Virus record (IMG/VR): IMGVR_UViG_3300016649_000097
Location: 1-64,000 of that record
Direction: 5' to 3' (one strand)
DNA length: 64,000 bases
Source of the DNA: a virus
Taxonomy: Duplodnaviria > Caudoviricetes
Made by a program: the position numbers and the translations under genes. Below the pieces are notes generated by a model. It saw only the letters and a program-made list of their open reading frames with translations, searched no databases and was not told where the DNA came from. Below, piece by piece: positions 10,951 to 51,260 of this stretch. The first letter of the stretch is position 1, and each line of letters opens with the position of its first letter.

Positions 10951-11715
10951 TTAACCGAACAGTCCCTGACCACGATTGTTTGCTGCATTGCCAAGTAATT
11001 TGGCTCTTTGTTTCGCATAGTCTGCCAATGACATATCCCTGATTGAATCAGGAGTTAACGGTTGTGTGTCCGAATTGGTGTCGAGGGGTCCTGCGGCAGG
11101 CGCTGTGATGCGTGGTCCTGCCATTTGTGCTCTAGCAGACTGCATAGCCTGTTGAGCGGAATCGAGAATTCGAGCAGACTTATCTTTTAGAGTTGCGATG
11201 CTCTGCTCAATTGCATCCTGTGAATCGCCTTCAATCAAATCGATGAGTTCAGGAATGATGTTATCTCGTTCCTGTTCCAATCGAGCCTGACGGTAATTCA
11301 TCAACTCTTGGAATTTGCGCTCTTGGTCTAAGAGTGCAATAGCACGTTCTCTTTCAAGACGTTCATTCTCTAATTGAGCCTGAAATTCTTGCTCCTTCTT
11401 CTTGAGAAGGTCTTTGAAGGACAGTTCATTCTCTTCCTGTTCCTTCTTCAACTGTGCTGCACGGCTCTCCTCTTCAGCAATGCGTGCTTGACGCTCTGCT
11501 TCACGGGCTGCCGCTTCCTCACGTTCTCTTTTCAGAGATGCGAGTTCCTCTTTCATCTTTTCAAGTTGTGGATATAACTTTGCCTTTTCTTGCTCACGCG
11601 CCTTTGCAATATCATCGGCTGTGTAACCTGGCATTGTTTGCTCACCACTCGTTGTTATTTCAATTGGTGACAGATTTGCATCCGTCATTTCTACTGTGTT
11701 TTCCATAGTAGTCAC
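10951..11715 (-). CDS. Capsid scaffolding protein
   Basis: Coiled-coil E/K/Q-rich; C-terminal MSLADYAKQRAKLLG helix; position between portal and capsid. Confidence 0.8.
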   Translation of the reverse strand: MTTMENTVEMTDANLSPIEITTSGEQTMPGYTADDIAKAREQEKAKLYPQLEKMKEELASLKREREEAAAREAERQARIAEEESRAAQLKKEQEENELSFKDLLKKKEQEFQAQLENERLERERAIALLDQERKFQELMNYRQARLEQERDNIIPELIDLIEGDSQDAIEQSIATLKDKSARILDSAQQAMQSARAQMAGPRITAPAAGPLDTNSDTQPLTPDSIRDMSLADYAKQRAKLLGNAANNRGQGLFG

Positions 11716-11836: not shown

Positions 11837-13573
11837 TTACTCTCTATCTACAGCCCTTCTCTGTGGAATCTTTGTTCCATAGGCTTGTGTAACTAAGTCA
11901 TTTCTAATAGCCGCTTCAGCCTGGTCTTCCATCATCTTTGACTCTTGAACCATAGGGTCTTCAAGTTTCTCTGGAGTTGGAGCGCCTTCTACGCCATCTC
12001 CCATAACATCTCCGTCACCTAGTTGTTCTGGAGCCAAAGGAACAGCGCTTGCGCCATCTGGTCCAGGCATCATTCCGGTCATGTCTTGAATCTGCTTCTG
12101 AATCTGAACTCTAATCAATGACAAGGCACCATCTGCCTTAGCATCCTCTACAAGTTCACGACGAATCTCTTGAAGTTTCTCTTCTGGGAACTCTTCGCCA
12201 AGTGTACGAAGCGCTCCTTCCTTTGACTCAAGACCCATGCCTAGTTTGGTCTGGATTTCATTAAGAACAATCAACTTATCGAGAGGTAGTGGAGGTGGGA
12301 ACTGAACATAGTTCATATATGACAGTTGGTCATTAGGGTCAAGTCTGTCGAACTGTCCCTCTTTGATTGGGCCGTCTTCGTCTGGGTTATAGAGGAAGGT
12401 CTGAGGTTCCTTTAATGCAAGAGTTCTTAATGCAATCTCATTTATCTTCTCTAGACCCTTGCCATATTGAGCAACCTTCTGTGAATAACGGTTCATTAAT
12501 GGCTGATACTGAATAGAAAGAGCAACACCAGATGTATTTGAGATTGGCTGAACTTGTCCAAGCGCAGTTTCTGGTATGTTCATGATTTCGTGCATTGAAC
12601 GCTTTAATAAATCTAGATATTTGAGTGCGCCATCAATTCCCTGCGCACCACCTTCAAGGTTAAAGACCTGGGCGTCTTTGGGTAGACCACCCCAGACCTT
12701 CTTCGCACCTTTCTCAAGGTTAGAGGCTTTAGCACCGACGATAACTGTCACAGGAGAAGCGTGATAGTTGATGATGTCTGCAACGTCGGTGCTGATTTCG
12801 TTATATGCGCGGTTGATAGTGATGATGTCGTGTGCGTCCGAGAGACCCCACGGTGAACCTGAAACAGGAACATTAGGAATGTGAACTACTGGAACTATTC
12901 CAATAGGATTTGGGCGTGAATCTATGAGTTCATCATTGATGTACTCTTCAATAACGTCATCAGTCAAAATTTCAGTATAAGTAAAGACTTGACGGGTACC
13001 TTCTAAAGAAGTGCCCCAGAAACGATACTTCTGTTTAAATCTCAGTAATCGCGTTCTATCGTGTGGATGAAACTCAGGGAAACAGAAAGACGAGTTCATA
13101 GGAAGGATACGGACACGACCAGCGTGGAAAAGACCAGCAGAGTCTGTCCATGGCTCTTCATATGCAATCTTTACAAAGCAATCTCCTGTAATACCACCCT
13201 GCTGTCCCATCTCAAGTAGGACACGCATCTTGTCATTGTCTACTTCCCAGATACGCTCTAGTCTGTCTGGAACGATTGCTTCGGTAGACTTTGGAGAACG
13301 GAAGTGAACACCGCGACCAAATACGAATCTTGAAAGATAGTCATTAAAAGCGCGGTAATAGTTAACTGCAATCTGCATTTCGCCTTGCTCACGGCGATAG
13401 CCCCAGTGATGACCTAAATACATCGCCCAGTTAAGTGAATAACGGTTTAGACGAGGACCGTGAACCTCAAATTCTTCATCAGCAAGTTCTACAAGGCCAA
13501 GAGGTGAAATGGAGATAGTAAGGTCTGATGACGCCGCACGGTACGACGGTGGCGTGAAATCAAGAAATGCCAT
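11837..13573 (-). CDS. Portal protein (SPP1 gp6-like)
   Basis: 578 aa; NPIGIVPVVHIPN...WGLSD; position between terminase and scaffold. Confidence 0.85.
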   Translation of the reverse strand: MAFLDFTPPSYRAASSDLTISISPLGLVELADEEFEVHGPRLNRYSLNWAMYLGHHWGYRREQGEMQIAVNYYRAFNDYLSRFVFGRGVHFRSPKSTEAIVPDRLERIWEVDNDKMRVLLEMGQQGGITGDCFVKIAYEEPWTDSAGLFHAGRVRILPMNSSFCFPEFHPHDRTRLLRFKQKYRFWGTSLEGTRQVFTYTEILTDDVIEEYINDELIDSRPNPIGIVPVVHIPNVPVSGSPWGLSDAHDIITINRAYNEISTDVADIINYHASPVTVIVGAKASNLEKGAKKVWGGLPKDAQVFNLEGGAQGIDGALKYLDLLKRSMHEIMNIPETALGQVQPISNTSGVALSIQYQPLMNRYSQKVAQYGKGLEKINEIALRTLALKEPQTFLYNPDEDGPIKEGQFDRLDPNDQLSYMNYVQFPPPLPLDKLIVLNEIQTKLGMGLESKEGALRTLGEEFPEEKLQEIRRELVEDAKADGALSLIRVQIQKQIQDMTGMMPGPDGASAVPLAPEQLGDGDVMGDGVEGAPTPEKLEDPMVQESKMMEDQAEAAIRNDLVTQAYGTKIPQRRAVDRE

Positions 13574-16505: not shown

Positions 16506-17339
16506 TTAACTCTTTCTTGGTTTTTTGGGCTTTGCTGTCTTTGGTAGGTTCTTCTTTGCAAGACGGTCATACTGCTTTGCACTTCGTTGTAATTGCAAAG
16601 TTCTGGTGAGTTTGTATAAAGCCGTGCGTGCGTAGGAGGGAAGGCTATTAACATTGGCTGCGCCACGTGGCTTGTAATCTAGATATTTGTAAATATATTG
16701 CCCTTTTGAAACTCGGCGTTTAAAATCTTGCCATTCTCCAGTAGTGACCTCGTAGTAGTTGTAATAAGTTCCATCACGGAACACTACGGTTAACACCGAA
16801 CGGTTACGGTCATATCCAGCAGCAACTGTACGTGGACGTTCTGGATTAGTAGATGAAGTAGGAACTAGAGAAAGAGGAGCAGGAGCATCTGATTCTCCTT
16901 CTTGTGGTCCCTTTTGACCAGGAATTACAACTTCGCCAGTATCTAGGTCTTCATCATAAAACTTACGACCTGCTGAACGGTCTACAAAGTTACCCTGACC
17001 GTCTACGTAGTAAACATCTTCGCCTAAAGATGGAAATACGGCTTCACCAGCCTGATTTCTGTACGCTACTTCATCAGGACTCTGTGGATTGTAATAGCGC
17101 ATGGTGTCAGTAGCGCTTAATAAAGATATTGTTTCAAAAAATTCGCCAGTAGATGCTGCTGTAGGAAGTGCAGCAAATGGACTTTGGAATCCGCCCTCTG
17201 TTGATAGGGCTTTCATCATTCCTGATGTTTGTTTTGGGCCGAAACCGTAAGGTTTACCAATTGCCCCTAGCATTTCTTGAGCAGAGGGGAGGGCAGCAGG
17301 CTTTTTGCCCGATGCGCCTCCTCCTCTGATTCTTGCCAC
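16506..17339 (-). CDS. KTSC-domain protein
   Basis: AAGYDRNRSVLTVVFRDGTYYNYYEVTTGEWQDFKRRVSKGQY. Confidence 0.8.
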   Translation of the reverse strand: MARIRGGGASGKKPAALPSAQEMLGAIGKPYGFGPKQTSGMMKALSTEGGFQSPFAALPTAASTGEFFETISLLSATDTMRYYNPQSPDEVAYRNQAGEAVFPSLGEDVYYVDGQGNFVDRSAGRKFYDEDLDTGEVVIPGQKGPQEGESDAPAPLSLVPTSSTNPERPRTVAAGYDRNRSVLTVVFRDGTYYNYYEVTTGEWQDFKRRVSKGQYIYKYLDYKPRGAANVNSLPSYARTALYKLTRTLQLQRSAKQYDRLAKKNLPKTAKPKKPRKS

Positions 17340-20349: not shown

Positions 20350-20514
20350 CTAATCTTCCTTATTGCGCAACGGATACGTGACCATCCAAGCAACCAGAGT
20401 TCCGAGTGTTGCCCAACCAACTACGTCCTTTGCGCTTCCATCAAGCACAATCCAGGCAATAAACATACCTAGAAGAGTCCAAAGTTGGTCTGCCATATCT
20501 TTGAGGAACTTCAT
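20350..20514 (-). CDS. 54-aa two-TM membrane protein
   Basis: My translation MKFLKDMADQLWTLLGMFIAWIVLDGSAKDVVGWATLGTLVAWMVTYPLRNKED; ATGA overlap with upstream stop. Confidence 0.7.
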   Translation of the reverse strand: MKFLKDMADQLWTLLGMFIAWIVLDGSAKDVVGWATLGTLVAWMVTYPLRNKED

Positions 20515-22991
20515 TTACGTCGTCTCCTAACGGCTTTCATATCTCCAGTTGGCGCTCCGCCACCTGAAGAACTGCCCCCTCTTGAACTGCCTCCAGTCGT
20601 TGTTGATGCTGCAGCAACTGCCGCAGCGTTCATAGCAGCACCAGCAGCGACAACTGTTGCTACAACCATCTTTGTTGCTTCTTCACGTTCTTCTGGTGAC
20701 ATGTCTGCGCCGATATTGCTAAGGGCTGCTAACGCAGCGCCTGGGTCTGTAAATAATTCGCCAATTAGTTCTGTTGGATTAGCAAGCAATTCTAGCGAAG
20801 CAGCCACCTCTGCCGTGATGACAACTGCATTTCCATTTTCATCAGTGCGAACATCAACTGGAGTTTCAGGAGGCAGGTCTTCATATGTCAGACCTGCTTC
20901 TTTGATAGTCTCACTTGATACAGTCTCACCTGGCTTTAGGTCAGCAACAATGGCTGTAATTACAGCAGCCTTCTCTTCGGCTGTTAACTTGCCATCGGCA
21001 AGTGCATCTGAAATAACTGTTTGTGGTGTAGGCTCTGGCTTACTTGGTTTAACGATAGGAGTATCTTGTGTTTCTTCCGACTGATTATCTTGCTCTTGGT
21101 TGTCTGTTTCTGTCTCTTCTAATTCTTCAGGTTGGGGTTCGTCAGAAACCTCGTCAGTTTCGTCGTCTTCTTCAGGGGTTGTGGGCTGTGGCTCTTCTTC
21201 TGGCTGGGACGGTTCTTGCTCTGAGTTTGTAGAATCTTCTGGTGAGTCTGTTTGTGGATTATCGGAAGATTCAGGAGTGTCTTGAGGATTCTCTGAATCG
21301 TCTGGAGTGTCTTCGGGAGTGTCATCTTCTGGAGCATCCTCTGGAGCCTCTTCCGGATTTTCTGTTTCCTTTGGAGAAGTGTCTGAAGGATTCTCTTCAG
21401 CAGGTTTCTCAGGCTTTACAGGTTCGACAGGTTTCTCTGGTTGAGGTTGAGTCTCAGGTTGAGGTGTTGGAACCGTGGGTTCAGAAGGAGTAGATGGTGA
21501 AGAAGGTTGTGGTTGTGGTTGCGGTTCTGGTTGGGGCTGTGGTTGCGATGCTGGTGGCTGTGAAGGAGTTGGCTCAGGCGTTTGAGGAGTGGGAGATGGA
21601 GTGGTCGGAGCCGGAGGTTGAAGAGCAGTAACAGCCTCTGCTACTTTAACAGTTGCCGTATCTGCTAACGCATTTGCATTGGCAATAGCAGTAGCCGCTG
21701 TTGCTTGAGCAGCGGCAATAGTCTCACTTGAAACATTAGTCATTGGTTGTACAGGTTGACCCGCGGTCTCGCGCACGCCCGTGCGTGGGCCATTCCACAG
21801 ATTAGTTGAATTGCCAGATATCTTTCCAATGCCTGTCCATTCACCAGTTCCAGGATTAACGGTCATCTTCCAGTTAATGTTAGTAAGAGGACCGTTTGGG
21901 TCAGCAAACTTATGCAAAGTCCAATCAACTTCTAGAGTTGTTTCTGTAGTTTTTACAACGGTTGAAGCACCTGTACCAGCGTTCTGGTAATCACTGGCAA
22001 ATACAGAGATATTTGGAGTATTAGGGAAATCCCACCAGTTAAAGTCTCCGGTACCAAAAGTAATCGTTGCTTTAGAGGTCACATAGATTTGGCTGTTTGG
22101 TCCTTGACCGTTATACAACACATCGCCCATTTTGATATCAAATGGCGTTTCAATCTTTGTAGCAGCGTCATACATGGTGGGCAAAACTCTTGTTGTAACA
22201 GTAGGCGTATCTACGGGAGTTGGGGCTACGTATCCATCGGTTGTGTATACCTTGGTGTTTTGAGGAGCGCTAGACAATTCATTGGCTGTGGTCTGTGCAG
22301 CAGCAGCAGTAACGGTTGCAGATTCTGCTGCATTGATAGCGGTTTGGGCTGCTGTAATTTGAGGGGCAGCAGCGGTTTGTTGTGTGACAGTTGACGACTC
22401 AATTGCGGTATTTAGCGTTACAGTTGCTGACTCTATTTTTGCTTGTACGGAGGTGACCGTAGGTGTTTCAGTCATGGTGGGTGTGGGCGTGGACGTTGTA
22501 CTGCTTGGGGACGGGGATTGTTCTGGGCTGGATATGGGCGTCGGAGCCGTTGAAGCGGAAGGTGAAGGTTCTGCAGTTGGTGATACAGACGGACTCGGAG
22601 CAGAAGATGGAGAGGATTCTGCGGTTGGAGCAACAGTTACGGTCGCTCCGTCAGAAACAGTCGGAGTTGGAAGAGGAGTTGAAGTGGAAGCAGGCGAGGG
22701 TTCTTGCGTTGGAGTCGGACTTGGAGAGGGTTCAGTCGAAGTTGATGTGGAAGGAGTAGGAGATGCAACAGGTGCTGTGGTTTCTGTTGGGGTTGGGCTT
22801 GGGGTTGGCTCTGGACTGGGTGTTGGTGAAGGTGATGCTGCGTTCGATTGAGCGGAGGATTCTTGCGCTGGAGGTTCATCAGCGTAGGCAAGAGATATCG
22901 TTAAGAGAACGTAGATAAACGCTGCTCCTAGTAAAAAGTATATTCGATTAAAGAAACCAGATTGTGCTGCGGATGAACGCAGTAGTTTCAA
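20511..22991 (-). CDS. Large Pro/Thr/Ser-rich exported membrane-anchored protein
   Basis: N-terminal signal/TM, PT linkers, central globular domain (IETPFDIKMG...IYVTSKATITFG), acidic linker, C-terminal hydrophobic anchor. Confidence 0.8.
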   Translation of the reverse strand: MKLLRSSAAQSGFFNRIYFLLGAAFIYVLLTISLAYADEPPAQESSAQSNAASPSPTPSPEPTPSPTPTETTAPVASPTPSTSTSTEPSPSPTPTQEPSPASTSTPLPTPTVSDGATVTVAPTAESSPSSAPSPSVSPTAEPSPSASTAPTPISSPEQSPSPSSTTSTPTPTMTETPTVTSVQAKIESATVTLNTAIESSTVTQQTAAAPQITAAQTAINAAESATVTAAAAQTTANELSSAPQNTKVYTTDGYVAPTPVDTPTVTTRVLPTMYDAATKIETPFDIKMGDVLYNGQGPNSQIYVTSKATITFGTGDFNWWDFPNTPNISVFASDYQNAGTGASTVVKTTETTLEVDWTLHKFADPNGPLTNINWKMTVNPGTGEWTGIGKISGNSTNLWNGPRTGVRETAGQPVQPMTNVSSETIAAAQATAATAIANANALADTATVKVAEAVTALQPPAPTTPSPTPQTPEPTPSQPPASQPQPQPEPQPQPQPSSPSTPSEPTVPTPQPETQPQPEKPVEPVKPEKPAEENPSDTSPKETENPEEAPEDAPEDDTPEDTPDDSENPQDTPESSDNPQTDSPEDSTNSEQEPSQPEEEPQPTTPEEDDETDEVSDEPQPEELEETETDNQEQDNQSEETQDTPIVKPSKPEPTPQTVISDALADGKLTAEEKAAVITAIVADLKPGETVSSETIKEAGLTYEDLPPETPVDVRTDENGNAVVITAEVAASLELLANPTELIGELFTDPGAALAALSNIGADMSPEEREEATKMVVATVVAAGAAMNAAAVAAASTTTGGSSRGGSSSGGGAPTGDMKAVRRRRK

Positions 22992-23028: not shown

Positions 23029-23262
23029 TTATACTGGTTTCCAGTTTCTGCGCACTATCAACTTCGCTGCAGCAGGATTGTGTGAGTTAACAGATTCTCC
23101 TTGCACACCACGTCCACGATTGTTCCAAGATACAACACTTGGTTCTGCTTTTGATTTGTAACCAAGGTTTGCGTTGTAACCAAAGTGCTGTTTAATTCCA
23201 CGACGTTGATTAACCATAAGTGTTTTTCTATCTAGTTTAGGTGAACCAAAAAAATTTTCCAT
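23029..23262 (-). CDS. Hypothetical protein
   Basis: 77-aa ORF coupled to upstream stop. Confidence 0.55.
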   Translation of the reverse strand: MENFFGSPKLDRKTLMVNQRRGIKQHFGYNANLGYKSKAEPSVVSWNNRGRGVQGESVNSHNPAAAKLIVRRNWKPV

Positions 23263-23642
23263 TAGAGAACTGCACCTCCACCATTAAATGTTGTTCCACC
23301 AATTCCCATTCCATCAGCAGGTGTCGCCGTTCTTCCAGAATCTGAAATCGGTGCATTCTGTTCTTGATTAGGCATACCAGTTCCTGAACCCATTGCACCA
23401 ACCATATTTGGGTATAAACCAAACCAAAATCCTGCGCCTGTATAACCTGATTCTCTTTTTCTCTTGAAACGGCGACGTTTACTCTCTTCAACTGTTTCCA
23501 TATAGTCATTAAACTGAGAGGCAAGGTTATTCACACGAGGACCCACGCTATATCTGCCATAACTTCCTTTGATGCCACCAAACATCCCTTGACCAAGAAC
23601 GTATCTACTGTCTTCCATAGTTGAATACACCTTCTGGGTCAT
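23262..23642 (-). CDS. Hypothetical protein
   Basis: 126-aa ORF; start may be MEDSRY. Confidence 0.6.
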   Translation of the reverse strand: MTQKVYSTMEDSRYVLGQGMFGGIKGSYGRYSVGPRVNNLASQFNDYMETVEESKRRRFKRKRESGYTGAGFWFGLYPNMVGAMGSGTGMPNQEQNAPISDSGRTATPADGMGIGGTTFNGGGAVL

Positions 23643-25022: not shown

Positions 25023-25286
25023 TCAGTCTTGCTGGATTCCGAGCCTTTCTAAGTACTTCTCTTTTTCTTGCATGAGGAACTCCTCAATGCGCTTATATTG
25101 CTCTTGAGCCTTATCTTCGGTTGCCTTGACCTGTTCTTCGGTCAAATCACCCATCCCATCCTTGAAAGTCTGAATGGCTAGGTCTAGTTCGGTTTTGGCA
25201 AGTGCGGCCCGAAGTTGTGCCCGCTCCCACCGTGCTTCTGCGTGTCGAATCTTCTTCCTCTTTCTTTTTTCTTGTTTCTTAGACAT
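25023..25286 (-). CDS. Coiled-coil hypothetical protein
   Basis: 87-aa ORF in operon. Confidence 0.65.
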   Translation of the reverse strand: MSKKQEKRKRKKIRHAEARWERAQLRAALAKTELDLAIQTFKDGMGDLTEEQVKATEDKAQEQYKRIEEFLMQEKEKYLERLGIQQD

Positions 25287-25785
25287 TTACCAACTCCGGT
25301 ATGGAGTCATTGAATTCGTGTAGAGGTATTCTCCAAGAACCTTCAGGGGCGTATATCCACTCATCTCTCTGCACATCTTCCATTCGAAGCCATCCATAAA
25401 CTTCTACCTGTGAGTAGTAGTCGCGGTCGAGTACGCGTGCGCCCACGAGAAGACGACCAGGTGTTATATCTTTTGGAAAGACTGGAATCTCATCACGGGT
25501 TCTAACGCTCTTGACTTCCACATTAGAGCCAACATCTGGAATGTGCTTTCTAAATGGATGTTCTTCATTTGGATAGAACGGAAATGTAAGTGGCATCTTA
25601 TAAAGTTTTGCAACAGCATATTCTGCAACGATAGTGCGAACGTTTGCTGATATCTCTGGTTCTAGTTTTGATTTATTATCGCCTGCATAGTTTGGTCTAT
25701 CAACACTGCCCCACTTCATCATCCATCGATTAAGAGCAATGTCTGCACAGGCTCTGACTTCTTCTTTGCTTAGGTTAACAATCAT
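25279..25785 (-). CDS. PD-(D/E)XK nuclease-like protein
   Basis: AEYAVAK...PDVGSNVEVKSVR. Confidence 0.55.
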   Translation of the reverse strand: MIVNLSKEEVRACADIALNRWMMKWGSVDRPNYAGDNKSKLEPEISANVRTIVAEYAVAKLYKMPLTFPFYPNEEHPFRKHIPDVGSNVEVKSVRTRDEIPVFPKDITPGRLLVGARVLDRDYYSQVEVYGWLRMEDVQRDEWIYAPEGSWRIPLHEFNDSIPELVNV

Positions 25786-25864: not shown

Positions 25865-26359
25865 TTACTCGACTTTAATGGTCCGTGGTCTCTTATGTTC
25901 AGGAATTTCTCTTTCGAGTCGTACTGTAAGCACGCCATCCTTCATATTGGCAGATATGACCTTAACATCGTCAGCCAATGCAAAGTTCTGCTCAAAGTCA
26001 CGAGCGGCTATGCCCTTATGTACATAATCGGCTGAGTCTGTGTCTTTCTTACCTGTAATAGTAAGTTGGTTCTCTTTGTAAATGATATCGATGTCGTCTT
26101 TGGTAAACCCAGCAGCAGCAATCTCAATCAGGTAAGTCTCTTCGTCATCTACCTGAATGATGTTATATGGCGGGTATGTGGATTTACTTGCATTACGCAA
26201 CTCTTCAAGAAGTTGGAAGTGACGGTCAAACCCGACAGTCCAAGAGTTTAAAAAGGGTGATAGAACCGCAAATGGATTTACAGGTTTTTCTACAATTTTT
26301 CCGTAATCGTAGTCCGGGTATTTGTATTGTTTCTTTTTAGATACTTCATAGGGTGTCAT
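25865..26359 (-). CDS. hsp20: Small heat-shock protein (Hsp20)
   Basis: YPPYNII...YLIEIAAAGF...HKGIAARDFEQNFALAD...AxMKDGVLTV. Confidence 0.93.
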   Translation of the reverse strand: MTPYEVSKKKQYKYPDYDYGKIVEKPVNPFAVLSPFLNSWTVGFDRHFQLLEELRNASKSTYPPYNIIQVDDEETYLIEIAAAGFTKDDIDIIYKENQLTITGKKDTDSADYVHKGIAARDFEQNFALADDVKVISANMKDGVLTVRLEREIPEHKRPRTIKVE

Positions 26360-26447: not shown

Positions 26448-26528
26448 TTAGTATGCCTGCTGTTGGAGCCAAGCAAGATAGTTCAGTATTGCAAAGATTA
26501 GAATAAAGATGCCTATCACAATCTTCAC
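26448..26528 (-). CDS. 26-aa single-TM peptide
   Basis: My translation VKIVIGIFILIFAILNYLAWLQQQAY; GTGA overlap with upstream stop. Confidence 0.5.
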   Translation of the reverse strand: MKIVIGIFILIFAILNYLAWLQQQAY

Positions 26529-27076
26529 TTCTTTAACTGACGCTCTATTTGAAACGGCCCAGAAGTATTAACGTCTATCTTCTCAGCAACAGCCATAGCC
26601 TTCTCTGGCTTCACACCAGCATATAAAGCCCCAAGAGCATATGGAGAGCCAGAGCCAACGCCATAGAAGCCAGCATCTGACATACAGACAGACATATCAT
26701 CGCCCACATCAAATAACTGACCATTGACTGCTATTAACAGGTTGAACCTTGACTCACCTGATTTGCCATCTTCTTTGCCCTCGTTGAAATCAAATCCGTT
26801 GTCTTCTAGACATTTACGAAGTGATGGCATCAACTTAGCGATAACGAAGTGATAAGTGTTCTTTCTATCTTTGGCAGTCATGGCAGGTGGGTTCCATAGA
26901 TGTTGAGCGATATCGCAAGGAGCAACTTCACCTGAACCTGCAACAAGGTATTCGCCTACCTTGCTAATCTTCTTCATTTCAGGATGCTTATATCTGCGCC
27001 CACCATCAAGTGTTACTTGATTGTCTGCCATCAACAAGCACGAATCGTCATACTGCACACCGATAATCGTGGTCAT
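26525..27076 (-). CDS. Ntn-hydrolase peptidase (HslV/proteasome beta-like)
   Basis: N-terminal MTTIIG, ADNQVT, KISK, AGSG, GVGSGSPYALGAL. Confidence 0.85.
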   Translation of the reverse strand: MTTIIGVQYDDSCLLMADNQVTLDGGRRYKHPEMKKISKVGEYLVAGSGEVAPCDIAQHLWNPPAMTAKDRKNTYHFVIAKLMPSLRKCLEDNGFDFNEGKEDGKSGESRFNLLIAVNGQLFDVGDDMSVCMSDAGFYGVGSGSPYALGALYAGVKPEKAMAVAEKIDVNTSGPFQIERQLKK

Positions 27077-27153
27077 TGGGTTCCCTTCGCCAGGACCCTA
27101 GGATACCAAATGGCCCCACAGGGCCCCCAGGCTAAAGGTATGCCCGATTTGCC

Positions 27154-27339
27154 CTAGATGCTCCACCAGCCACGTATTGTGCCGCCCTCAACTGGACACT
27201 TGTAGGCAAGGTGACGACCCTGCTCGTAGTACTCCTTGAACAGACGACTCGCCAACTCCCGGTCAGGCTCGTGCGTGTCGCGCCCGCACGCGGGGCAAAT
27301 CGCCGCCCCGACATATTCATAGACGTGTAGGCAGGTCAC
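27154..27339 (-). CDS. Small Cys-rich protein
   Basis: CLH...ICPACGRDTHEP; overlaps upstream stop. Confidence 0.6.
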   Translation of the reverse strand: MTCLHVYEYVGAAICPACGRDTHEPDRELASRLFKEYYEQGRHLAYKCPVEGGTIRGWWSI

Positions 27340-27884
27340 TCGAACTCCTTGAACAGATGTGGATGCAACTCTTCTGGTTGATAGTTCTCAGGGACAGGCC
27401 ATGGGTCGATGCTTCCCATGTGCTTTCTCTCTAACGTTAATGGCGCACCAATTCCTTGTTTCTTTCGCTCACCTGGACCCCACCCGCTTGCACCTGAGTA
27501 AACAAAGACTGGAACATGACTATGTCCCGCTAACTCTGCTGCAGCAAGACGATGATGTCCTTCTCCTAGATAACCCCATTGATGCTTTGTACTATGTTCT
27601 AGCATTAGCGGTTCTTTGATAACACCGCCGGATTTTAATTCTTGGGCGATTTCATTTATGCGCTTTTCACTATCTCCAGTGCTATGTTCGCCTTGTCTGT
27701 CGTATTCACGATACTTCTTCACCTCAGAGATAGGCAGCATGGCAGTAATGCTTCTGCTTCTATCTCCTGCAAGGTGACCAATACCACCAGATTTACGAAT
27801 CTGTGTGCCTTCAGGAATGGGCAGGCCTAACTTAGGGATGGTTGGTTGTTCCCATTGCTTTCCTAGATTATCTGAGGCGCTCAT
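27336..27884 (-). CDS. ParB/Srx-like domain protein with NLGKQW tag
   Basis: IAQELKSGGVIKEPLML...LGEGHHRLAAAELAG. Confidence 0.75.
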   Translation of the reverse strand: MSASDNLGKQWEQPTIPKLGLPIPEGTQIRKSGGIGHLAGDRSRSITAMLPISEVKKYREYDRQGEHSTGDSEKRINEIAQELKSGGVIKEPLMLEHSTKHQWGYLGEGHHRLAAAELAGHSHVPVFVYSGASGWGPGERKKQGIGAPLTLERKHMGSIDPWPVPENYQPEELHPHLFKEFE

Positions 27885-28288
27885 GCCTTAGTCCTTTTGG
27901 GCTTTTTAAACTTTCTAGTCTTGGTGCTGCCAAAGTCATCAGTGACTCGTGTTACTCCTGTTAAAGTTACCTCTGCGCCACTTTTTACTGGCAATTCTTC
28001 TTCTAAAGGATTGTAATCAATGGCGTGCTTTTCTCTAAAGGCTTTTTTATCTTGATATGAAGAAATTGGTACTTCTGCGTGGAGTATGTACTGTTTAGCG
28101 TTTCTTTTACTTAAGAACCGATTTTCTGGCGCCCCTGTAGAAAAAGCCTCTGCTACATCGTGAGCATGAGTCCAGTGAGTGCCCAAATTTTGCAAATCTA
28201 ATTTTTGACCTCTTGGAACATTGACGCCCCTATGAACTTCCCATGACAGTTCTGGCTGATGCCATTGACGGCCTAAGTTTCTGTTCAT
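27881..28288 (-). CDS. Putative ADP-ribosyltransferase-fold protein with NLGRQW tag
   Basis: Start ATG 28288; beta1 VHRG, beta2 THWT, VAEAF helix, E-x-E in LEEEL. Confidence 0.6.
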   Translation of the reverse strand: MNRNLGRQWHQPELSWEVHRGVNVPRGQKLDLQNLGTHWTHAHDVAEAFSTGAPENRFLSKRNAKQYILHAEVPISSYQDKKAFREKHAIDYNPLEEELPVKSGAEVTLTGVTRVTDDFGSTKTRKFKKPKRTKA

Positions 28289-28689
28289 GACATTGGACCC
28301 ATTGGAGAACGCTTTGGTAGAGCACCACCTACATTCTTTGCCCACTCTTCTCCTTCTGGTGTTCTGTGCTTAGAATGTTGGGGCGCCTTTATTCCAGTAT
28401 CGGTCGCTAACTTATGTGCCTTCTCCCATAGAGTAGTAGCGACACCAAGGCCTCGATAATCCTGATGTGTGCGAACCCAGTTGACCTCTCCTGTCTGTGG
28501 ATGCCATTGGAGAGTTCCTACTAGTTTTGGCTTTGCTTTACCTTCCTCCATGTGGGTGTCATTGGTAGCAATTGCTTGAATCTGGTGATAAGCAAAGAAG
28601 CCCTTCTTACTAGGCGCGGTATATTTAAATTGGACGTCAGATAAGTTACGTGGCTTATTGGGGTCAGATGGCTTTGGTGTCTTTTTCAT
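28285..28689 (-). CDS. GNAT acetyltransferase with NLSDVQF tag
   Basis: VRTHQDYRGLGVATTLW acetyl-CoA motif, SKHRTPEGEEWA. Confidence 0.8.
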   Translation of the reverse strand: MKKTPKPSDPNKPRNLSDVQFKYTAPSKKGFFAYHQIQAIATNDTHMEEGKAKPKLVGTLQWHPQTGEVNWVRTHQDYRGLGVATTLWEKAHKLATDTGIKAPQHSKHRTPEGEEWAKNVGGALPKRSPMGPMS

Positions 28690-29084
28690 CAGTGGTGGAA
28701 GTGCTCTCCGTCAAGAGTTGTGTGAGGCTCATCGGTATATTTGTTATGGTCATGATGATGTAGGGCGATTAATTCTTGATGAGTCATTTCTCTATCATCT
28801 CCGCCTTTAGGACGAACACCTGGGATATGGTCATCTTCATGACTGTTACGCCATTCGGCGTGTCTTCCCATCATGTGACCATTGTCGGATTTCAGGTGGT
28901 CCAATAGGTCTGCATGGTCATGGATGTCTACTGTTCTGGTTCTTTCGACTTCTGCGCCCATATGCTGTAAATCTCGCGCCTGCACGAAGGCCTTCATTCT
29001 CTCTACCTCTTCTGGAGAGAACTCAATATGAAAGTGATTAGTTCCTGCTGATTCGCATTTGGGGTCTTTGCAATTTTCTTCCAT
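28689..29084 (-). CDS. His-rich hypothetical protein
   Basis: HDHADLLDHL, HHHDH, HFHH. Confidence 0.7.
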   Translation of the reverse strand: MEENCKDPKCESAGTNHFHIEFSPEEVERMKAFVQARDLQHMGAEVERTRTVDIHDHADLLDHLKSDNGHMMGRHAEWRNSHEDDHIPGVRPKGGDDREMTHQELIALHHHDHNKYTDEPHTTLDGEHFHH

Positions 29085-29086
29085 GG

Positions 29087-29269
29087 TTATGCCTTTGTAC
29101 TAGAAGCAGTATTAGACGCCCCTGAAGGAGGCATCATCTGCATTGCGGTATTTACATATAACTTTTTGGGCATCTCTTTGCGGAAGTAGAATTGCTCCCC
29201 AGATAACGCCTTATGCATCAGTTCCTGATGGAACTTCTGTGTAGGGTTCTTTCGTACTACCGCAGCCAT
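29087..29269 (-). CDS. Hypothetical protein
   Basis: 60-aa ORF in operon. Confidence 0.55.
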   Translation of the reverse strand: MAAVVRKNPTQKFHQELMHKALSGEQFYFRKEMPKKLYVNTAMQMMPPSGASNTASSTKA

Positions 29270-29309
29270 AAGGACATTATGAGGCCGTTACTGAGAAAAT
29301 TTGGGCTGA

Positions 29310-29756
29310 TTAAGAAAACTGCTGAGGATTTAGGTTGTTGCTCTTCATTAGGCCCTCAAATCTTTCGCCCAACTCCTTGTCATGAGTCATAGTCTGTTGA
29401 CGATAATGGTCCAGTTCAGAACGAAGTTTTGGCATATGTCTAGAGAACGCCTTAGTAATGGGATGCTTTTCACCTAAGTTGTAATGTGCTACCTGATGAC
29501 CTGACGAAAGAGCGTCATAGACATGTCCCATGTGAGTTGAGGCTTCTGAGTAATTCCTCTCTTCATGTGCCTGATTAGCAAAGGTATGGTGCATGTTGGC
29601 TGCATCTAGATACTTTTTTAAATAGACTGAAGTAACTGCGGCATGAGTGCCTTGTGTAGGTTTGTTGTTTTCTAAAGAGTACTGAATACCACCGACCAAG
29701 GCTCCAAATCTCCAGTGAGCCTTGTCCTTATCCATAGGACCGCTAAGAGGATTCAT
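29310..29756 (-). CDS. His-rich helical protein ending in NLNPQQFS
   Basis: 148-aa ORF coupled to upstream stop. Confidence 0.7.
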   Translation of the reverse strand: MNPLSGPMDKDKAHWRFGALVGGIQYSLENNKPTQGTHAAVTSVYLKKYLDAANMHHTFANQAHEERNYSEASTHMGHVYDALSSGHQVAHYNLGEKHPITKAFSRHMPKLRSELDHYRQQTMTHDKELGERFEGLMKSNNLNPQQFS

Positions 29757-29933
29757 TTAATCCCCTTCGTAACCTCGATAAGAACCTTCATACTCATCAA
29801 ACTCACCCTTACGAGCATCTGGCTTGAATGGAGTTTTTAATGCCTCAGAAAGGTCTTCACCATAAGGCAAACGAGAAATTTCATCAGGATTGTGATAATC
29901 CTCGAATTGACGACCTAGGTTTCTTCTTGCCAT
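29757..29933 (-). CDS. 58-aa protein starting MARRNLGRQF
   Basis: My translation; not in ORF track; abuts next ATG. Confidence 0.7.
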   Translation of the reverse strand: MARRNLGRQFEDYHNPDEISRLPYGEDLSEALKTPFKPDARKGEFDEYEGSYRGYEGD

Positions 29934-29977
29934 TCCCCAAGGATATGGCTACTGCCTCAAAAATTTAGCGTGAAATC

Positions 29978-30357: not shown

Positions 30358-30419
30358 ATTGGCGGCCTTCGGCTACTGCCTAGCCCCAAACCCTCCACCT
30401 ATGTCTTTCACCTGGCTGT

Positions 30420-31880
30420 TCTTCCGGCGATTCTCGCTTAATGGTGGGGGGGGTTATGTAATTTTTTATTTGATGACACTTACCACCTGACTACTAATCA
30501 GGTGGTAATTGTTCAACTCATGCTCAATTTATTTATTATTAAATAGTTTGGTGACAACTTTGGTGACAATAACTTTGGCTACTGTCTATTTAGCAACAAG
30601 GTTCGTGCGACCACTACCAAGTCATCAGACCACTTGGCTAGTTGTTATCAGGTAGTTAGCACCGGACTAGTTGTTATCACTTGCTACTCGCTTCGCGTTG
30701 CTATGTGAATCTATACAACTAACTAACTAACAATCTGTTATGTGTAGATAGTTACTATGACTAACTCAGTTATTCTTCTCAGTAATAGCCAAGTAACTCA
30801 CATAGCAATTCCTGGAATTAGCCACCTGAGATAAGTAGTTACTTATTCCGGTCTTCTCTTCAGGTGACGGGTAGTTAGTTAGTAACTTGGGATTCCGCCA
30901 GAGTAGTTACTTACTTGGATTCTCCTACCGGCTATTGCTATGCGTAGTTACTTATTCGACAGCGTGGCTATGTGATTATCTATCTATTACTAAAGTGTTT
31001 ATTTGTATTAGGTATTTCTATTATCTATTTATGTATCTATTACATTCTTTGTATTAGTCATTACTGAAAAGAAAAACTCTTTGGCGCGATTAGTTATGTG
31101 GGGGCGCACGCGTAAGGGCTAAGTAACTATTCGCAAGGGGGCGTGGTGCTTGGGGCGAGTTAGTTGAACTTTCAACCAAGTCACTTGGGGGCTAGGGGCT
31201 AGATATGCGTAAAACGCCTATAAACAGGCGTGTAGAACTCAGTTGGTCTTTATGGCATAATTGGCTCAGCGCACGCGCCAAGCGTGGGTCGGAAAAGAAG
31301 CACCAATCCGAGTGATTCCGATTCACTAGTAGGCAGAAGTGAAAAAGGCTAAACGCACTAGCACTAGCGGTGTATCTGTTAATAGAACTTCGGTTCGCGG
31401 TTGATAACCAAAACAGAGTGACGAAATAACTAGAAGCGTTTAATTAAATAGAGGCTAAGAAGAACGCGATTACTGTGTGAGTTCTACGAGTGAAATAAAA
31501 AAATACTTTGTTACTAGTAGTGATGATTCCTATTACTAACGGCTCGTATTAAAAACAAAGAGAGAACTTTGACTCACGCACATTCGGTGTAACTACCTAA
31601 CGATTATGAAAATAATTGTGAATAGCGTTTGGCTTAGAAGAGAGTTACGGAAAGTTGTGTAACTCAATTAGTCATTACTCATGGATTGCTAATAACAATT
31701 AGTGCCGACAGTAACCAATCTGTAATAAGAACAATGAAGGTAATGACTAAACGAGTTATTCATACTTAGTAATTCCGCTATGTGTTTAAGAACTTTATGT
31801 TCTTACTGTGATTGTCATTCATACCGATTCAGCGAATGAGATTGAATGACAATCGCGGTATCTACATAGGAAAGAGGAAA
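30420..31880. other. Long non-coding, repeat-rich divergent region
   Basis: No ORF of 60 aa or more; 11-bp inverted repeat 30480-30508; CTAGTTGTTATCA at 30638 and 30667; TAGTTACTTA three times plus one inverted copy. Confidence 0.8.
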
Positions 31881-31884
31881 CACA

Positions 31885-32058
31885 ATGGCAAACACATACA
31901 CAATCGGTGATTTATTCACCTCTACAAAGTCACAAGTGACAGGAATTATCGAAGAGATTATTCCGGTGCGTGATGACCTAGTGAAAGTTAGGTTGAATGT
32001 TGAAGGCGAAACTCGCTGGACTACATGGACACCTGATGTCGAGCCAATAACTGAATAA
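31885..32058 (+). CDS. 57-aa SH3-like small protein, first gene of plus-strand island
   Basis: My translation MANTYTIGDLFTSTKSQVTGIIEEIIP...VKVRLNVEGETRWTTW; GAGG RBS. Confidence 0.7.
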   Translation: MANTYTIGDLFTSTKSQVTGIIEEIIPVRDDLVKVRLNVEGETRWTTWTPDVEPITE

Positions 32059-32094
32059 CAACTAAATACCAATCAACTAATACAAGGAGAAATA

Positions 32095-32542: not shown

Positions 32543-33907
32543 ATGACTACAACGCAATACGGCGTATTACTCGCCTCACAACCTGCTGATGTAACACTCA
32601 CACGACAAGTTGTTATCGCAAAGATAGATAACGAGATTGTCTGCTACTCACGCCTTACGAATGGCAAGCAAGGCAAACAGAACGCATGGGTAAAAGGCGC
32701 GTTCAAGTTTGATAGTGGCGAGCCACTAATCGGTGAGCCGGTTTCAATTCCGATAACACAGAATGATGTTGATGATTACAAAGAGAACGACATTCCAAGA
32801 GTTCTCATTCAGAAACTAATTCGTAAGCACTCTTTATCAGACCAATCACTAACTGATGAAGCGATTAGTGTCGCTGATTCAATATGGGAAGCGTTTGATA
32901 ATGACCCTGCTTCACTTGCTAAGTTCTTCGTTGATAATCGCGGTCAAAGAGTTACTAAGGGCTCTGTTGTATCGCACGATTCTGTTATTCAGATTCGTCA
33001 CGCAACTTCACAGGTCGCACAATCACTTGTTGATAGTGAAGAGCGTTCTCTGTATCTACCAAGTGTTACTGAGTTCTCTCATTACATTCAGCGAAAGTTT
33101 GCTGGTGATGTTGATGAATTAACTATGTATCAGTTCGCACTTGCTAACAAGATGAATGTTCTTCTTTACGGAGATGCCGGAACAGGTAAGACTTCATCTT
33201 CCATGTGGATTGCTTCATTACTTGGGCTTCCATACTTTGCGATTCCTTCTAACTCTGCTCTTGATTACACGCAGATTGTTGGCGGTTATGTTCCAAACGC
33301 TAACGGCTCGTTGTCATGGACAGACGGCGCGGTAACTCGCTTAGTTCGTAATGGTGGCGTTCTTCTTATCGGTGAAGTAAATACACTCGCTAAGAATGTT
33401 CAGCAGTTCCTAATGCCATTACTTGACTACCGCCGGTCAATTACAGTTATGGAGAATGGCAACGAAGTTATCAAGGCGCACGACAACTTGTTAATTATCG
33501 CTGACATGAATCCAAACTATCGTGGCACTCAATTACTCAACGAAGCATGGAAAGACCGCTTCGAGATTAAATTGAACTTCGGTTATGACCGCGCTATTGA
33601 GAAGAAGATTCTCAAATCAGAATCACTACTCGACCTTGCCTATGGCATGAGGTCGCGTTCTCGTGGTGCTGACAATCATTACTCCGGTGACAACAACACA
33701 ATCTTTGATACGCCGGTTTCAACTCGTATTCTCAAAACTTTCGAGAAGTTAGCAACGGAATTGTCATTCGATTTCGCTTGTGAAGTCTTTGCGAATAACT
33801 TTGATGAGAACGAGCGACCAGCAGTTAAGTTGTTGCTCGAATCAAATGCTTACAACCTTCAATCAGATTTAGGTTTGATTGAAACTACTTCTACAACTTC
33901 GGCTTAG
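32543..33907 (+). CDS. MoxR/CbbQ-type AAA+ ATPase
   Basis: GDAGTGKT, LLIGEVN, MNPNYRG, AWKDRF, STR. Confidence 0.9.
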   Translation: MTTTQYGVLLASQPADVTLTRQVVIAKIDNEIVCYSRLTNGKQGKQNAWVKGAFKFDSGEPLIGEPVSIPITQNDVDDYKENDIPRVLIQKLIRKHSLSDQSLTDEAISVADSIWEAFDNDPASLAKFFVDNRGQRVTKGSVVSHDSVIQIRHATSQVAQSLVDSEERSLYLPSVTEFSHYIQRKFAGDVDELTMYQFALANKMNVLLYGDAGTGKTSSSMWIASLLGLPYFAIPSNSALDYTQIVGGYVPNANGSLSWTDGAVTRLVRNGGVLLIGEVNTLAKNVQQFLMPLLDYRRSITVMENGNEVIKAHDNLLIIADMNPNYRGTQLLNEAWKDRFEIKLNFGYDRAIEKKILKSESLLDLAYGMRSRSRGADNHYSGDNNTIFDTPVSTRILKTFEKLATELSFDFACEVFANNFDENERPAVKLLLESNAYNLQSDLGLIETTSTTSA

Positions 33908-33917
33908 AAAGGTAATC

Positions 33918-35855
33918 ATGTCACTACCGGAACTAACAGAGTTCGCAAAGTTAGCGAATGACATTCTGTTGGAAGAAGAAGAGCGCAATCGCGCTCGTGT
34001 CGAGCGACTAACTCGATACTTCTCTCGCGTTAATTCCGCACTTACATTCCGCGAAATTAAAGTGAAGGTTGAATCTTCTACGATTGAAGCACCTGCTTGG
34101 TCGGGTGCTTCTGACATAACTCTCAACTCACGACTCATTAACGACTTTAATAATGGCGTTAATGTTGCGAATCTTCGTGGGCTTAACTTCCACGAGTTGT
34201 CGCACATTCTCTATACACCTAGACATGGTTCAGAGATTGTTACTTGGGTTAATGAGAACAAGTATCGCTTGGCGTTTAATGCGTTGGAAGACCAACGAAT
34301 CGAAACACTATTCACCGCACGATTCCCTTCCACTACGGATTGGTTCGTTGTAACTGTTCTGACTTACTTTGTTAATGACGAAAAACAATTCCAAACTTCT
34401 TATCCGTTGCTTCGTGGTCGTAAGTATCTGCCACTAGAAGTTCGTGAGAAGTCGCGTGAGTTGTTTCCATTCCAAGATAAGTTAGATGAAATCTGTGAAA
34501 TCGTTGATGAATACAGAACGCTGGTGTATCCACTCGACACAGAGCGTGGCAAAGTTCTTATTGAACGATTCCACAATCTAATTGGCTCGTTGCCTCAGCA
34601 TGGTGACGGCGGTAATGGTGACGGCGGTAATGGTGAATCCAAAGACGGAGAATCTTCTACTGTTGATTACAACGACCTAACTGATGAACAGAAACAACAG
34701 GTAAGGAACGCTAGACCTGCTGACGGCAGTAATGGCGCACCGACTACGACAATCCTTAACTGTCCATTCGGTCATGGTGACAGACCAACGGAAGGTATCG
34801 AGCCTTCGATACATTCACGACCACAGACACCGAAGAATCAGAAGCGTGATAGCGAACGCGCAAAGCAATTAGATAAAGCGATTCAAGATGAAGCGCAAAC
34901 TTCACAATCGCAATCTAAAGATTCGCAATCGCAATCACCTTCTCAACAAGGTGGTAACTCTGCCGGTAACACAGGTTCTCTTACTGAGATTCTGAAAACC
35001 GCGATAAGTGATGTTATGGATAAGGAAAGTGTCGCTAATGAAATCACCGAGATTATTCGCGTGATGAAAGGGCTACCTTCTCTTTCTAGTAACAATCTCA
35101 CAGAGCCCGACCTTGCTTCATACGCAAAAGCAATTCCTGATTCCAAGACACTTTCTACTTCCGTTTCATTCGCTCGTGAATTGGAACGATTGAAAGCAAA
35201 GTTCGACCCTGCTTGGGATAAGTATGAATCGCGTGGCAAACTAAACGCACAACGATTCGTTCGTGGTGATGATTTAGATACTGTCTTTGATACTTGGAAT
35301 GAAGGTCGAGAAGACGCTACTGAAATTGAGTGCGTAATCATTCTCGACAAGTCCGGTTCTATGGGCGGTAACAAAGCAACTCAGGCTTATCGCGCTATGT
35401 ATGCGATTAAGTATGCGCTCGACAAAATCGGTGCTAACTGTTCTGTTATCACTTTCAATCACGAAGCAGAAGTTCTTTATCGCGCAAGTGACAAAGCAAC
35501 TTCATTCATTCGTGATAGTGGTGCTGACGGCGGAACTAACGCCGAATACGCGGTGCGCTACGCAACTAAGTTGCTTGCTGAATCAGATAAGCCGGTCAAG
35601 TTGTTCTTCGCAATAACTGACGGCGAATGGTCTGATAGTGAGGCGTGTGACGGAGAGATTAAGAAACTATCTCGTGCCGGTGTTCTCACCGCGTTCGCTT
35701 ACATTCCTGAACACAACGAAGAGGTTGTATTGACTCACGAGAAAGCGCATTACGCAGATGTCGCTTCTGTGATTCGCAATCCATTCGATTTAGTTGGTAT
35801 GGCTCGCACAATCGTTCGTAACGCGATTACTCGCAGAGTTACTTCCAACGCTTAG
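33918..35855 (+). CDS. VWA-domain protein with N-terminal HExxH
   Basis: HELSH, NALEDQRIE; MIDAS DKSGSM, GGT, ITDGE; start ATG 33918. Confidence 0.88.
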   Translation: MSLPELTEFAKLANDILLEEEERNRARVERLTRYFSRVNSALTFREIKVKVESSTIEAPAWSGASDITLNSRLINDFNNGVNVANLRGLNFHELSHILYTPRHGSEIVTWVNENKYRLAFNALEDQRIETLFTARFPSTTDWFVVTVLTYFVNDEKQFQTSYPLLRGRKYLPLEVREKSRELFPFQDKLDEICEIVDEYRTLVYPLDTERGKVLIERFHNLIGSLPQHGDGGNGDGGNGESKDGESSTVDYNDLTDEQKQQVRNARPADGSNGAPTTTILNCPFGHGDRPTEGIEPSIHSRPQTPKNQKRDSERAKQLDKAIQDEAQTSQSQSKDSQSQSPSQQGGNSAGNTGSLTEILKTAISDVMDKESVANEITEIIRVMKGLPSLSSNNLTEPDLASYAKAIPDSKTLSTSVSFARELERLKAKFDPAWDKYESRGKLNAQRFVRGDDLDTVFDTWNEGREDATEIECVIILDKSGSMGGNKATQAYRAMYAIKYALDKIGANCSVITFNHEAEVLYRASDKATSFIRDSGADGGTNAEYAVRYATKLLAESDKPVKLFFAITDGEWSDSEACDGEIKKLSRAGVLTAFAYIPEHNEEVVLTHEKAHYADVASVIRNPFDLVGMARTIVRNAITRRVTSNA

Positions 35856-35955
35856 GTGTCACTCTCTAGGTGACAAGGTGTGGGGCGTATTCATTACGCC
35901 TCACACTTCCAATTACAAACAATCCAATTACAAACTAATCAGGAGAAATAAAAAG

Positions 35956-48043: not shown

Positions 48044-48388
48044 TTAGGACTTAGGTGTATCTATGCCCCTATCGGACAGAGCAGACATCAGTCTTTCCCG
48101 TAATTCTTTAGCGGAATCTTGGGGGCGCAAATTCTCAATTACAGTTCTTGCTACCCTATCAGCGAGAATCTGCGAGTCGATATCGTGGGCTATATCCTTA
48201 CAAGTTGTATAGATGTCGAAAGAGTTTGCTTTACGAAGGACTGTGTCACTAGGTTCAGCGACCTGTGTGTTCACACTGCCATCTGTCCCCACGATTACAG
48301 TGTAGGCAAACTCAATCTTCTTTTCTTCTGGTCTGCCTAAGTCTTCCCAAGCCTTTTCTTTCTCGATTGGGTCAATCACTGGTTCCAT
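48044..48388 (-). CDS. Hypothetical protein
   Basis: 114-aa coupled ORF. Confidence 0.7.
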   Translation of the reverse strand: MEPVIDPIEKEKAWEDLGRPEEKKIEFAYTVIVGTDGSVNTQVAEPSDTVLRKANSFDIYTTCKDIAHDIDSQILADRVARTVIENLRPQDSAKELRERLMSALSDRGIDTPKS

Positions 48389-50900: not shown

Positions 50901-51260
50901 CTACTCACTTCCTAACGTGTTTCTAGAAGCACCAGTGTATCCCGCAGGGCTTCCTGAGTACCAGGAAATGCGTGGCTCTACATAGGTCCTATCAACTGTA
51001 ACAACATCATCTATGCCTGGAACATCTCGGTTATATCCATACCGCTCAGGGAATAGCCGTATCTGAGGTAATGGAGGACGAACCATTGCTGAGATTTCTG
51101 CTCCAGGAATAGTTGCAACCATAAGTGCTTGGGATGTTAGGCGCTCCATATTTGATGACCAGGGTCCGTTGTATTGCCAACGCTTTGCTACTTGGTCAGG
51201 TTGAACAGGTGCACGCCATGGCTTTGTGTAGTCGTAAACACCATCATATTTTTGTGTCAT
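50901..51260 (-). CDS. Hypothetical protein
   Basis: 119 aa, P/W-rich. Confidence 0.7.
   Translation of the reverse strand: MTQKYDGVYDYTKPWRAPVQPDQVAKRWQYNGPWSSNMERLTSQALMVATIPGAEISAMVRPPLPQIRLFPERYGYNRDVPGIDDVVTVDRTYVEPRISWYSGSPAGYTGASRNTLGSE

Follow-up and report, generated by a model that had tools for sequence, protein, structure and literature searches.

A short, portable N-terminal peptide is shared by hypervariable arrays of small effector-type proteins in a freshwater phage lineage and may address them to a common partner

In encapsulins and microcompartments, short terminal peptides send unrelated enzymes inside a protein shell from either terminus, and the shell of encapsulins has the HK97 fold. 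In phage T4, the capsid-targeting sequence (CTS), an N-terminal peptide of ~10 residues, is the sole feature shared by the diverse and fast-evolving small proteins IPI, IPII, IPIII and Alt [PMC3012670; PMC5512222], and Alt is a packaged ADP-ribosyltransferase (ART) [PMC5512222]. ART, GNAT and DdrB-like ParB domains are also typical of polyvalent proteins and are predicted to travel with the incoming DNA, in agreement with the initial annotation of the locus described here [PMC5512222]. Here, we describe a peptide tag, NL-x(2-3)-Q-[FW], carried by otherwise unrelated small proteins encoded in the first 64 kb (64,000 nucleotides, the window) of an 86.6-kb IMG/VR virus record, IMGVR_UViG_3300016649_000097. 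The T4 CTS appears to be the nearest precedent for its architecture: in both cases a short N-terminal peptide is common to unrelated proteins, a (here predicted) ART among them, and the set of proteins varies between close relatives. However, searches here revealed neither a head protease of the gp21 type nor a cleavage site of the L/I-x-E type, the tagged genes number up to nine per locus and fall into 45 body families, one copy in the window is C-terminal, and packaging is putative in this uncultured phage. The T4 peptide, which we take to be MKTYQEFIAE, also bears no sequence likeness to the tag. In contrast to encapsulin cargo-loading peptides, the tag has no GSL-type consensus and the candidate shell is a DNA-filled capsid of the N4 gp56 family. 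The predicted ART, GNAT and ParB/Srx-like DNase repertoire is the same as that of polyvalent proteins; however, in the latter 2-15 domains are fused, often with a MuF or peptidase domain, whereas in the phage each domain is a separate small protein with the common tag [PMC5512222].

The tag was recognised in a run of seven consecutive minus-strand genes (27336-29933), not all of which have it. Five of them carry it at a terminus, in four cases 4-15 residues from the start and in one at the extreme C-terminus, and every peptide quoted in the initial annotation, which had proposed this shared terminal motif, is present on this strand. A sixth gene (29087-29269) has a degenerate copy, ALSGEQF, directly behind an internal Met. 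Across the 86.6-kb genome the pattern is matched seven times versus 0.43 expected from 300 within-protein shuffles, and five matches versus 0.05 expected lie within the first 25 residues of proteins, which excludes chance as the origin of the motif. Related loci were obtained by anchoring on the neighbouring gene for an HslV-like peptidase (n=14), and a back-translated tag pattern searched against IMG/VR returned 45 stretches, nearly all of the same lineage; the ParB-like protein as an anchor recovered no close relatives, and GenBank phages gave zero DNA matches to the array region. The pooled set of 147 related IMG/VR loci (1.64 Mb, many of them short fragments) contains 430 motif matches in open frames, 325 of which have an ATG 1-6 codons upstream, while the reversed sequences of the same loci gave four matches and none with an upstream ATG. 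Both the terminal enrichment, far above the shuffles and the reversed control, and the retention of the tag across related loci therefore bear out what the initial annotation had anticipated for a genuine signal. The distinct tagged proteins number 234, with a median length of 109 amino acids, and were sorted into body families by BLAST of the portion behind the tag.

The consensus of the tag is M-[SA]-A-[QES]-D-N-L-[SG]-x(1-2)-Q-[FW]; a shorter variant reads MSNLSxxQF, and the Asn lies 1-6 residues past the Met in 224 of the 234 tagged proteins. Starts seen upstream of the HslV-like genes of relatives include MSASDNLGRQF, MSNLSNQQF, MSAQDNLSKAQW and MINLNQKQF. The positions after the aromatic residue are not conserved. 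The conserved N, L, S, Q and F are encoded by diverse synonymous codons, with five used for Leu and both TCN and AGY for Ser, indicating that selection acts on the peptide and not on a DNA or RNA element. In an AlphaFold2 (AF2) model of the ART-like protein, the tag (residues 1-10) lacks secondary structure and has a pLDDT of 57, whereas the part matched to other folds starts at residues 9-16. The tag is thus a portable N-terminal peptide of ~8-12 residues that forms a flexible extension ahead of many unrelated small proteins, and it is modular and under selection as a peptide. Readings as an N-x-S glycosylation sequon or a Ser-Pro phosphorylation site were discarded, as Gly replaces Ser in many tags.

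Individual members illustrate how the tag is kept. In the GNAT, it is preceded by a 13-residue basic, Pro-rich stretch that is retained in every homologue, and the C-terminal copy of the 148-residue protein is retained in one diverged homologue (L104). The homologues of the mini-protein encoded at 29087-29269 are 38-43 amino acids long and consist of a canonical N-terminal tag followed by MPKExYVNVAMQMxPPSxASNTASSTKA (11-12 distinct members). For the 58-residue protein, no homologue was found in the related loci and no match in Pfam or PHROG. Outside the array, a conserved core protein (23262-23642), whose gene adjoins the endolysin gene, forms a family of 30 distinct members, and in many relatives an ATG lies 2-3 codons ahead of the motif; a search of the ESM Atlas with this protein gave no match. 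The distant copy ANLAQAQF that the initial annotation had reported is present as well, directly precedes the start of a Pfam DUF7178 match and is retained in one relative (G001). However, the description of this protein as glycosylase-like found no support, and its membership in the tag set is uncertain, since the peptide may belong to the DUF7178 domain. Just upstream of the homologous gene in the high-GC relative G006 lies a separate tagged open reading frame (ORF) of 60 amino acids. An N-terminal NLSPIEI of the scaffold protein is not kept in relatives and was taken as a coincidence.

Searches of IMG/VR recovered the long form of the tag from this myovirus family only and not from unrelated phages. 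Among 185,579 bacterial species genomes the tag is not above chance, the six matches being, by estimate, no more than expected for the pattern. Two copies of a 159-residue protein starting MSAQDNLSKAQF in one actinobacterial metagenome-assembled genome probably resemble the tag by coincidence; this chromosomal family usually starts MIAQDNINRAHF. These look-alikes (L086:5665-6144 and L088:3055-3534) share the start MSAQDNLS[RK]AQF, and the family (36 matches, no Pfam assignment) has the usual start MIAQDNINRAHFKVYAA. No family in Pfam or PHROG covers the tag and literature searches turned up no description, so that the motif looks undescribed, although the principle of a shared N-terminal tag is already known from T4.

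Table 1. Features of the array, of its neighbourhood and of distant genes discussed in the text (positions in the window)
Feature	Position	Strand	Details
58-amino acid acidic protein, MARRNLGRQF...	29757-29933	-	RNLGRQF, residues 4-10; core NLGRQF at 29904-29921
148-amino acid protein of unassigned family, ends ...NNLNPQQFS	29310-29756	-	sole C-terminal copy, 29316-29336
Mini-protein, 60-amino acid ORF	29087-29269	-	ALSGEQF after internal Met at 29218
His-rich 131-amino acid protein, untagged, within the array	28689-29084	-	homologues in relatives likewise untagged
GNAT	28285-28689	-	RNLSDVQF, residues 14-21; core NLSDVQF at 28627-28647
Predicted ART-fold protein, 135 amino acids, MNRNLGRQW...	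27881-28288	-	tag core 28262-28279
ParB/Srx-like protein, 182 amino acids, MSASDNLGKQW...	27336-27884	-	DNLGKQW, residues 5-11; core 27852-27869
Zinc-ribbon-like Cys/His protein, 61 amino acids, untagged, closes the array	27154-27339	-	
Terminator-like hairpin separating the array from the HslV-like gene	27112-27125	-	consensus match only
HslV/proteasome-like peptidase, starts MTTIIGV	26525-27076	-	Pfam Proteasome 25.6 bits (cut-off 22.4); phrog_1040 E 2.9e-28
Conserved core protein, basic then Gly/aromatic-rich	23262-23642	-	NNLASQF at 23511-23528
DUF7178 protein	51257-51919	-	ANLAQAQF, residues 17-24, 51848-51868
WhiB-like gene	58053-58373		

The domain assignments of the initial annotation were upheld for the GNAT and, as a fold, for the ART-like protein, while the ParB-like call is backed by a motif and by weak matches. 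The GNAT matches Pfam Acetyltransf_1 with 26.3 bits against a cut-off of 20.7. The ART-like gene truly begins with the ATG at 28288, whose overlap with the stop codon of the GNAT gene reads ATGA. The family alignment A1 (23 sequences) has an invariant R20 and Glu residues at positions 96 and 98 conserved in at least 90% of the rows, and the AF2 model has a mean pLDDT of 86.9. Of the 50 VIA-align matches listed for this model, 48 are ART-fold proteins, including TreX, TreTu, pertussis S1, cholera A1, PARPs (Z 7.0-5.0) and ParT, with modest Z scores of 7.0-4.4, under 8, over ~77-110 aligned residues and a root-mean-square deviation of 3.1-4.6. Foldseek alone returned no match at E <= 0.001, and the assignment is made because of the VIA-align matches and the motifs. 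On this modelling basis, we hold the protein to have an ART fold of the R-S-E clade with a conserved R...E-x-E, in which the Ser motif is not clear. The family also has a conserved tail, R-x-R-x-Y-[KN]-P-P-R-x-M-x-A, modelled with high confidence as the last beta-strand, and an untagged 227-residue protein of genome G002 (48066-48749) ends in the same tail. The largest tagged family comprises proteins of ~100 amino acids with [FY]HG[ST] immediately behind the tag and weak matches to Pfam Arr-ms (rifampin ART), the profile starting right after the tag. The ParB-like protein reaches 17.8 bits for ParB_N, under the cut-off of 26.3, and matches a PHROG ParB-like family with E 3.5e-5; EGHHRLAAA, with the GHHR motif, can be read in its sequence. 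Several members of the ParB-like family have a second motif, Q-[LP]-P-M-[FY]-M-T-G-x-E-I, behind the tag (for instance L073:4776-5300, L073:6330-6572 and G002 28991-29443), which also occurs in untagged proteins starting MMKRPPKD. Other tagged families are tiny or low-complexity basic or acidic mini-proteins. All tagged proteins are single-domain, with no fusion of two or more effector domains, and the "split polyvalent arsenal" of the initial annotation is best kept as an analogy for how such a set might have arisen.

Relatives whose flanking genes are 60-97% identical differ in their cassette content, and the tagged genes are hypervariable cassette arrays of small effector-type proteins. Their predicted contents are R-S-E-type and Arr-like ARTs, GNATs, ParB/Srx-like nucleases and basic or acidic mini-proteins. 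The phage is a myovirus, as sheath, baseplate and tape-measure genes were found past the end of the window, and it has genes for a capsid protein of the N4 gp56 family (9790-10917), a scaffold (10951-11715), a portal (11837-13573) and a large terminase. Judged by the capsid protein (60-62% identity), Streptomyces phages of the BRock group are its closest relatives in culture and, together with the WhiB-like gene, this is consistent with a freshwater actinophage; uncultured or difficult-to-culture actinobacteria are the likely hosts. The lineage, one group of actinobacterial phages, is among the most abundant freshwater phage lineages, and more than 4,000 variants of its capsid protein are present in public data.

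A modular, position-specific peptide that lies outside the folds of its carriers has the look of a docking or address signal. It is very probable that one common partner reads the tag, which it would do via the Leu and Phe/Trp residues as anchors and the invariant Asn and Gln. Tentatively, we place this partner in the assembling head: the arsenal would be loaded into the capsid and delivered with the DNA, like the T4 internal proteins and Alt, a possibility that draws on analogy and that we favour while still regarding it as doubtful. In its support, the effector repertoire corresponds to domains for which packaging is predicted [PMC5512222], the lysis and head genes downstream of the array share its orientation, a tagged core gene family adjoins the endolysin gene, tagged genes lie inside the structural modules of the distant relatives L044 and L045, and one homologue retains the C-terminal copy, as would be expected of a docking peptide that tolerates either position. 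A more specific version, a protease-independent cargo code in which a DNLSxxQF-type peptide at either terminus docks interchangeable effector cassettes inside an N4-gp56-type HK97 capsid, so that a strain-specific ART, acetyltransferase and nuclease arsenal would be injected with the DNA by an encapsulin-like loading process in a tailed phage, strikes us as a speculative and rather unlikely combination. A joint complex prediction of the capsid protein (76-row alignment), the scaffold and the HslV-like peptidase with the 58-residue tagged protein gave an ipSAE of 0.00 in two runs, in which the partner's own fold was uncertain, and counts neither for nor against binding.

Several observations weigh against capsid loading. 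No canonical prohead protease was detected in the head module between the terminase and capsid genes, and there is neither a cleavage motif nor a conserved residue after the Phe/Trp of the tag. The Streptomyces phage BRock has a terminase, portal and capsid protein that are 52-62% identical, yet is tag-free; it possesses the head and replication modules but not the whole 17.3-42.5-kb block with the array, the HslV-like gene and MoxR/vWA. All five complete high-GC relatives (105-110 kb), chosen by a terminase ~75% identical to that of the tag-bearing contig L045, are likewise tag-free, while three higher-GC relatives (58-60% GC) have one or two tagged genes each. In L045, a phage of 58% GC, the tagged genes travel with an HNH gene in an insertion that 95%-identical relatives lack, suggesting a mobile cassette of the homing type; their GC content equals the background and the consensus tag is kept. 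This insertion (L045:8773-10097) contains two tagged genes, a gene for a 45-residue Cys protein and an HNH endonuclease-like gene, and lies on the opposite strand between the terminase and portal genes. Finally, the array heads a leftward gene block beside a divergent control region and has a terminator-like hairpin behind it, a position that looks like that of an early operon. Taken together, the lack of a protease and cleavage motif, the tag-less relatives with similar heads, the early-looking position and the mobile cassettes favour a host hub or another reader encoded by the module.

In the former case, the tag would be a short linear motif with affinity for a single conserved host protein, such as RNA polymerase, the ribosome, a Clp or AAA+ adaptor domain or the replisome, and brings early takeover effectors to their site of action. 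The position at the start of an operon and the tag-free phages with homologous heads both fit this idea, as does the insertion in L045, where self-contained tagged cassettes were moved into a different phage and kept the consensus after GC adaptation, a pattern expected of a self-contained module whose reader need not be phage-specific. ART, GNAT and nuclease domains are also typical of early takeover genes (T4 ModA/ModB) [PMC5512222]. However, the confinement of the long form in IMG/VR to one myovirus family and the chance-level frequency of the tag in bacterial species genomes speak against it. The tag moreover differs from what we take to be the clamp-binding motif, and a host partner seems on balance unlikely. 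Alternatively, the reader could be encoded by the phage module itself, with the tag docking onto a small chaperone, immunity or adaptor protein. Candidates are the zinc-ribbon-like protein, present inside the tagged arrays of 19 related loci and reminiscent of the small Cys protein between the two tagged genes of L045, and the neighbouring MoxR AAA+/zincin-vWA pair, which could engage the acidic residue preceding NL through the metal site of its vWA domain and whose operon flanks the array in relatives and is missing from BRock. As this proposal is drawn from gene neighbourhood, and the remaining tagged loci, many of them short fragments, gave no zinc-ribbon match, we give it a low probability.

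The HslV/proteasome-like peptidase is another potential reader, for which the tag would be a recognition or cleavage site (P1 = Phe/Trp/Leu) or a degron, allowing the timed activation or removal of toxic effectors. Its gene directly follows the array here, lies no more than a few kb from the arrays of most related loci, occurs in all three complete or near-complete tag-bearing genomes and is missing from the tag-less BRock. M1, T2 and T3 are invariant in 15 sequences, consistent with an N-terminal Thr after the Met. Chymotrypsin-like Ntn peptidases prefer aromatic or large hydrophobic residues at P1, and the tag ends in such a residue. However, the HslV-like genes of other phages (DSL-LC01, 33% identity; ct2KA10, 42%) lack such tags in their vicinity, in most relatives the genes for an endolysin and for a 168-residue protein lie between the arrays and the peptidase, and no unfoldase partner was identified. 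A search with an HslV profile returned the same lineage only, at identities of at least 60%. We therefore think a protease handle as improbable as a reader from elsewhere in the module. It is also conceivable that the tag has no docking role, and that the shared start is either a by-product of cassette evolution, one ancestral 5' module serving as a recombination joint, or an aid to expression or stability through efficient translation initiation or N-terminus protection. The tight packing of the arrays with frequent ATGA-type overlaps and the shuffling of cassettes among close relatives would agree with this. However, the nucleotides are not conserved while Asn, Leu, Gln and Phe/Trp are near invariant over the 45 families, spacing variants of one residue are tolerated, one C-terminal copy is retained and the GNAT family keeps its tag 14 residues from the start, which makes such an origin very unlikely. 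A similarly small chance is left for an explanation that we have not thought of.

By sequence alone, the tag flags a large and fast-changing set of effector candidates in an abundant freshwater lineage. As a loading signal, it would represent a second, unrelated case of the T4 capsid-targeting principle, though one with no cleavage, and would offer a ready means of packaging foreign proteins. Were its partner a host hub or a protease, the tag would mark a single vulnerable node used by many phage effectors. Under either reading, a short synthetic peptide such as MSASDNLSPKQF makes the question of the reader directly testable.

The array starts beside a large divergent non-coding region (30358-32094), and its genes are tightly packed, several overlapping by a few bases. 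After the hairpin, genes for the HslV-like peptidase, Hsp20, lysis and head proteins follow in this order on one strand. Promoter and terminator consensus scans and an inspection of intergenic regions for a shared late promoter gave nothing usable for timing. The stretch 29234-29911, with the 148-residue and the tagged 58-residue genes, is represented at 99% identity or more by contigs of three riverine RNA libraries from as many studies, a hint of natural transcription at the head of the array; such libraries may hold carried-over DNA, the uncovered parts of the array are uninformative and depth cannot rank genes. Near-identical pieces of 25959-26325 and 33682-35933, with the Hsp20 and vWA genes, are also present in contigs of a fourth metatranscriptome library, a freshwater run, where carried-over DNA is likewise conceivable. 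The sequence GGCAGTAGCC occurs on the minus strand at 29947-29956, 30371-30380 and 30577-30586 (two exact copies and a third with a single mismatch) and precedes by 13-14 nt the starts of the tagged 58-residue gene and of the first gene (81 amino acids) of the leftward operon. With up to one mismatch, it has eight matches in the window versus 2.5 expected and may be an operator or translation signal.

Further genes of this region deserve mention. Between the terminase gene and the lineage-specific block, in a stretch common to BRock, a 277-residue protein (16506-17339, minus strand) contains a KTSC domain (Pfam E 5.5e-12). The 168-residue protein (25279-25785, minus strand) has no Pfam or PHROG match, is kept beside the arrays in 30 loci and has a PD...EVK pattern reminiscent of PD-(D/E)xK nucleases. 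Lastly, an 826-residue protein without a PHROG match (20511-22991, minus strand), which is kept in relatives, combines an N-terminal signal-like segment and very long low-complexity tracts rich in Pro/Thr/Ser and Glu/Asp/Pro with a C-terminal hydrophobic anchor ending in RRRRK.

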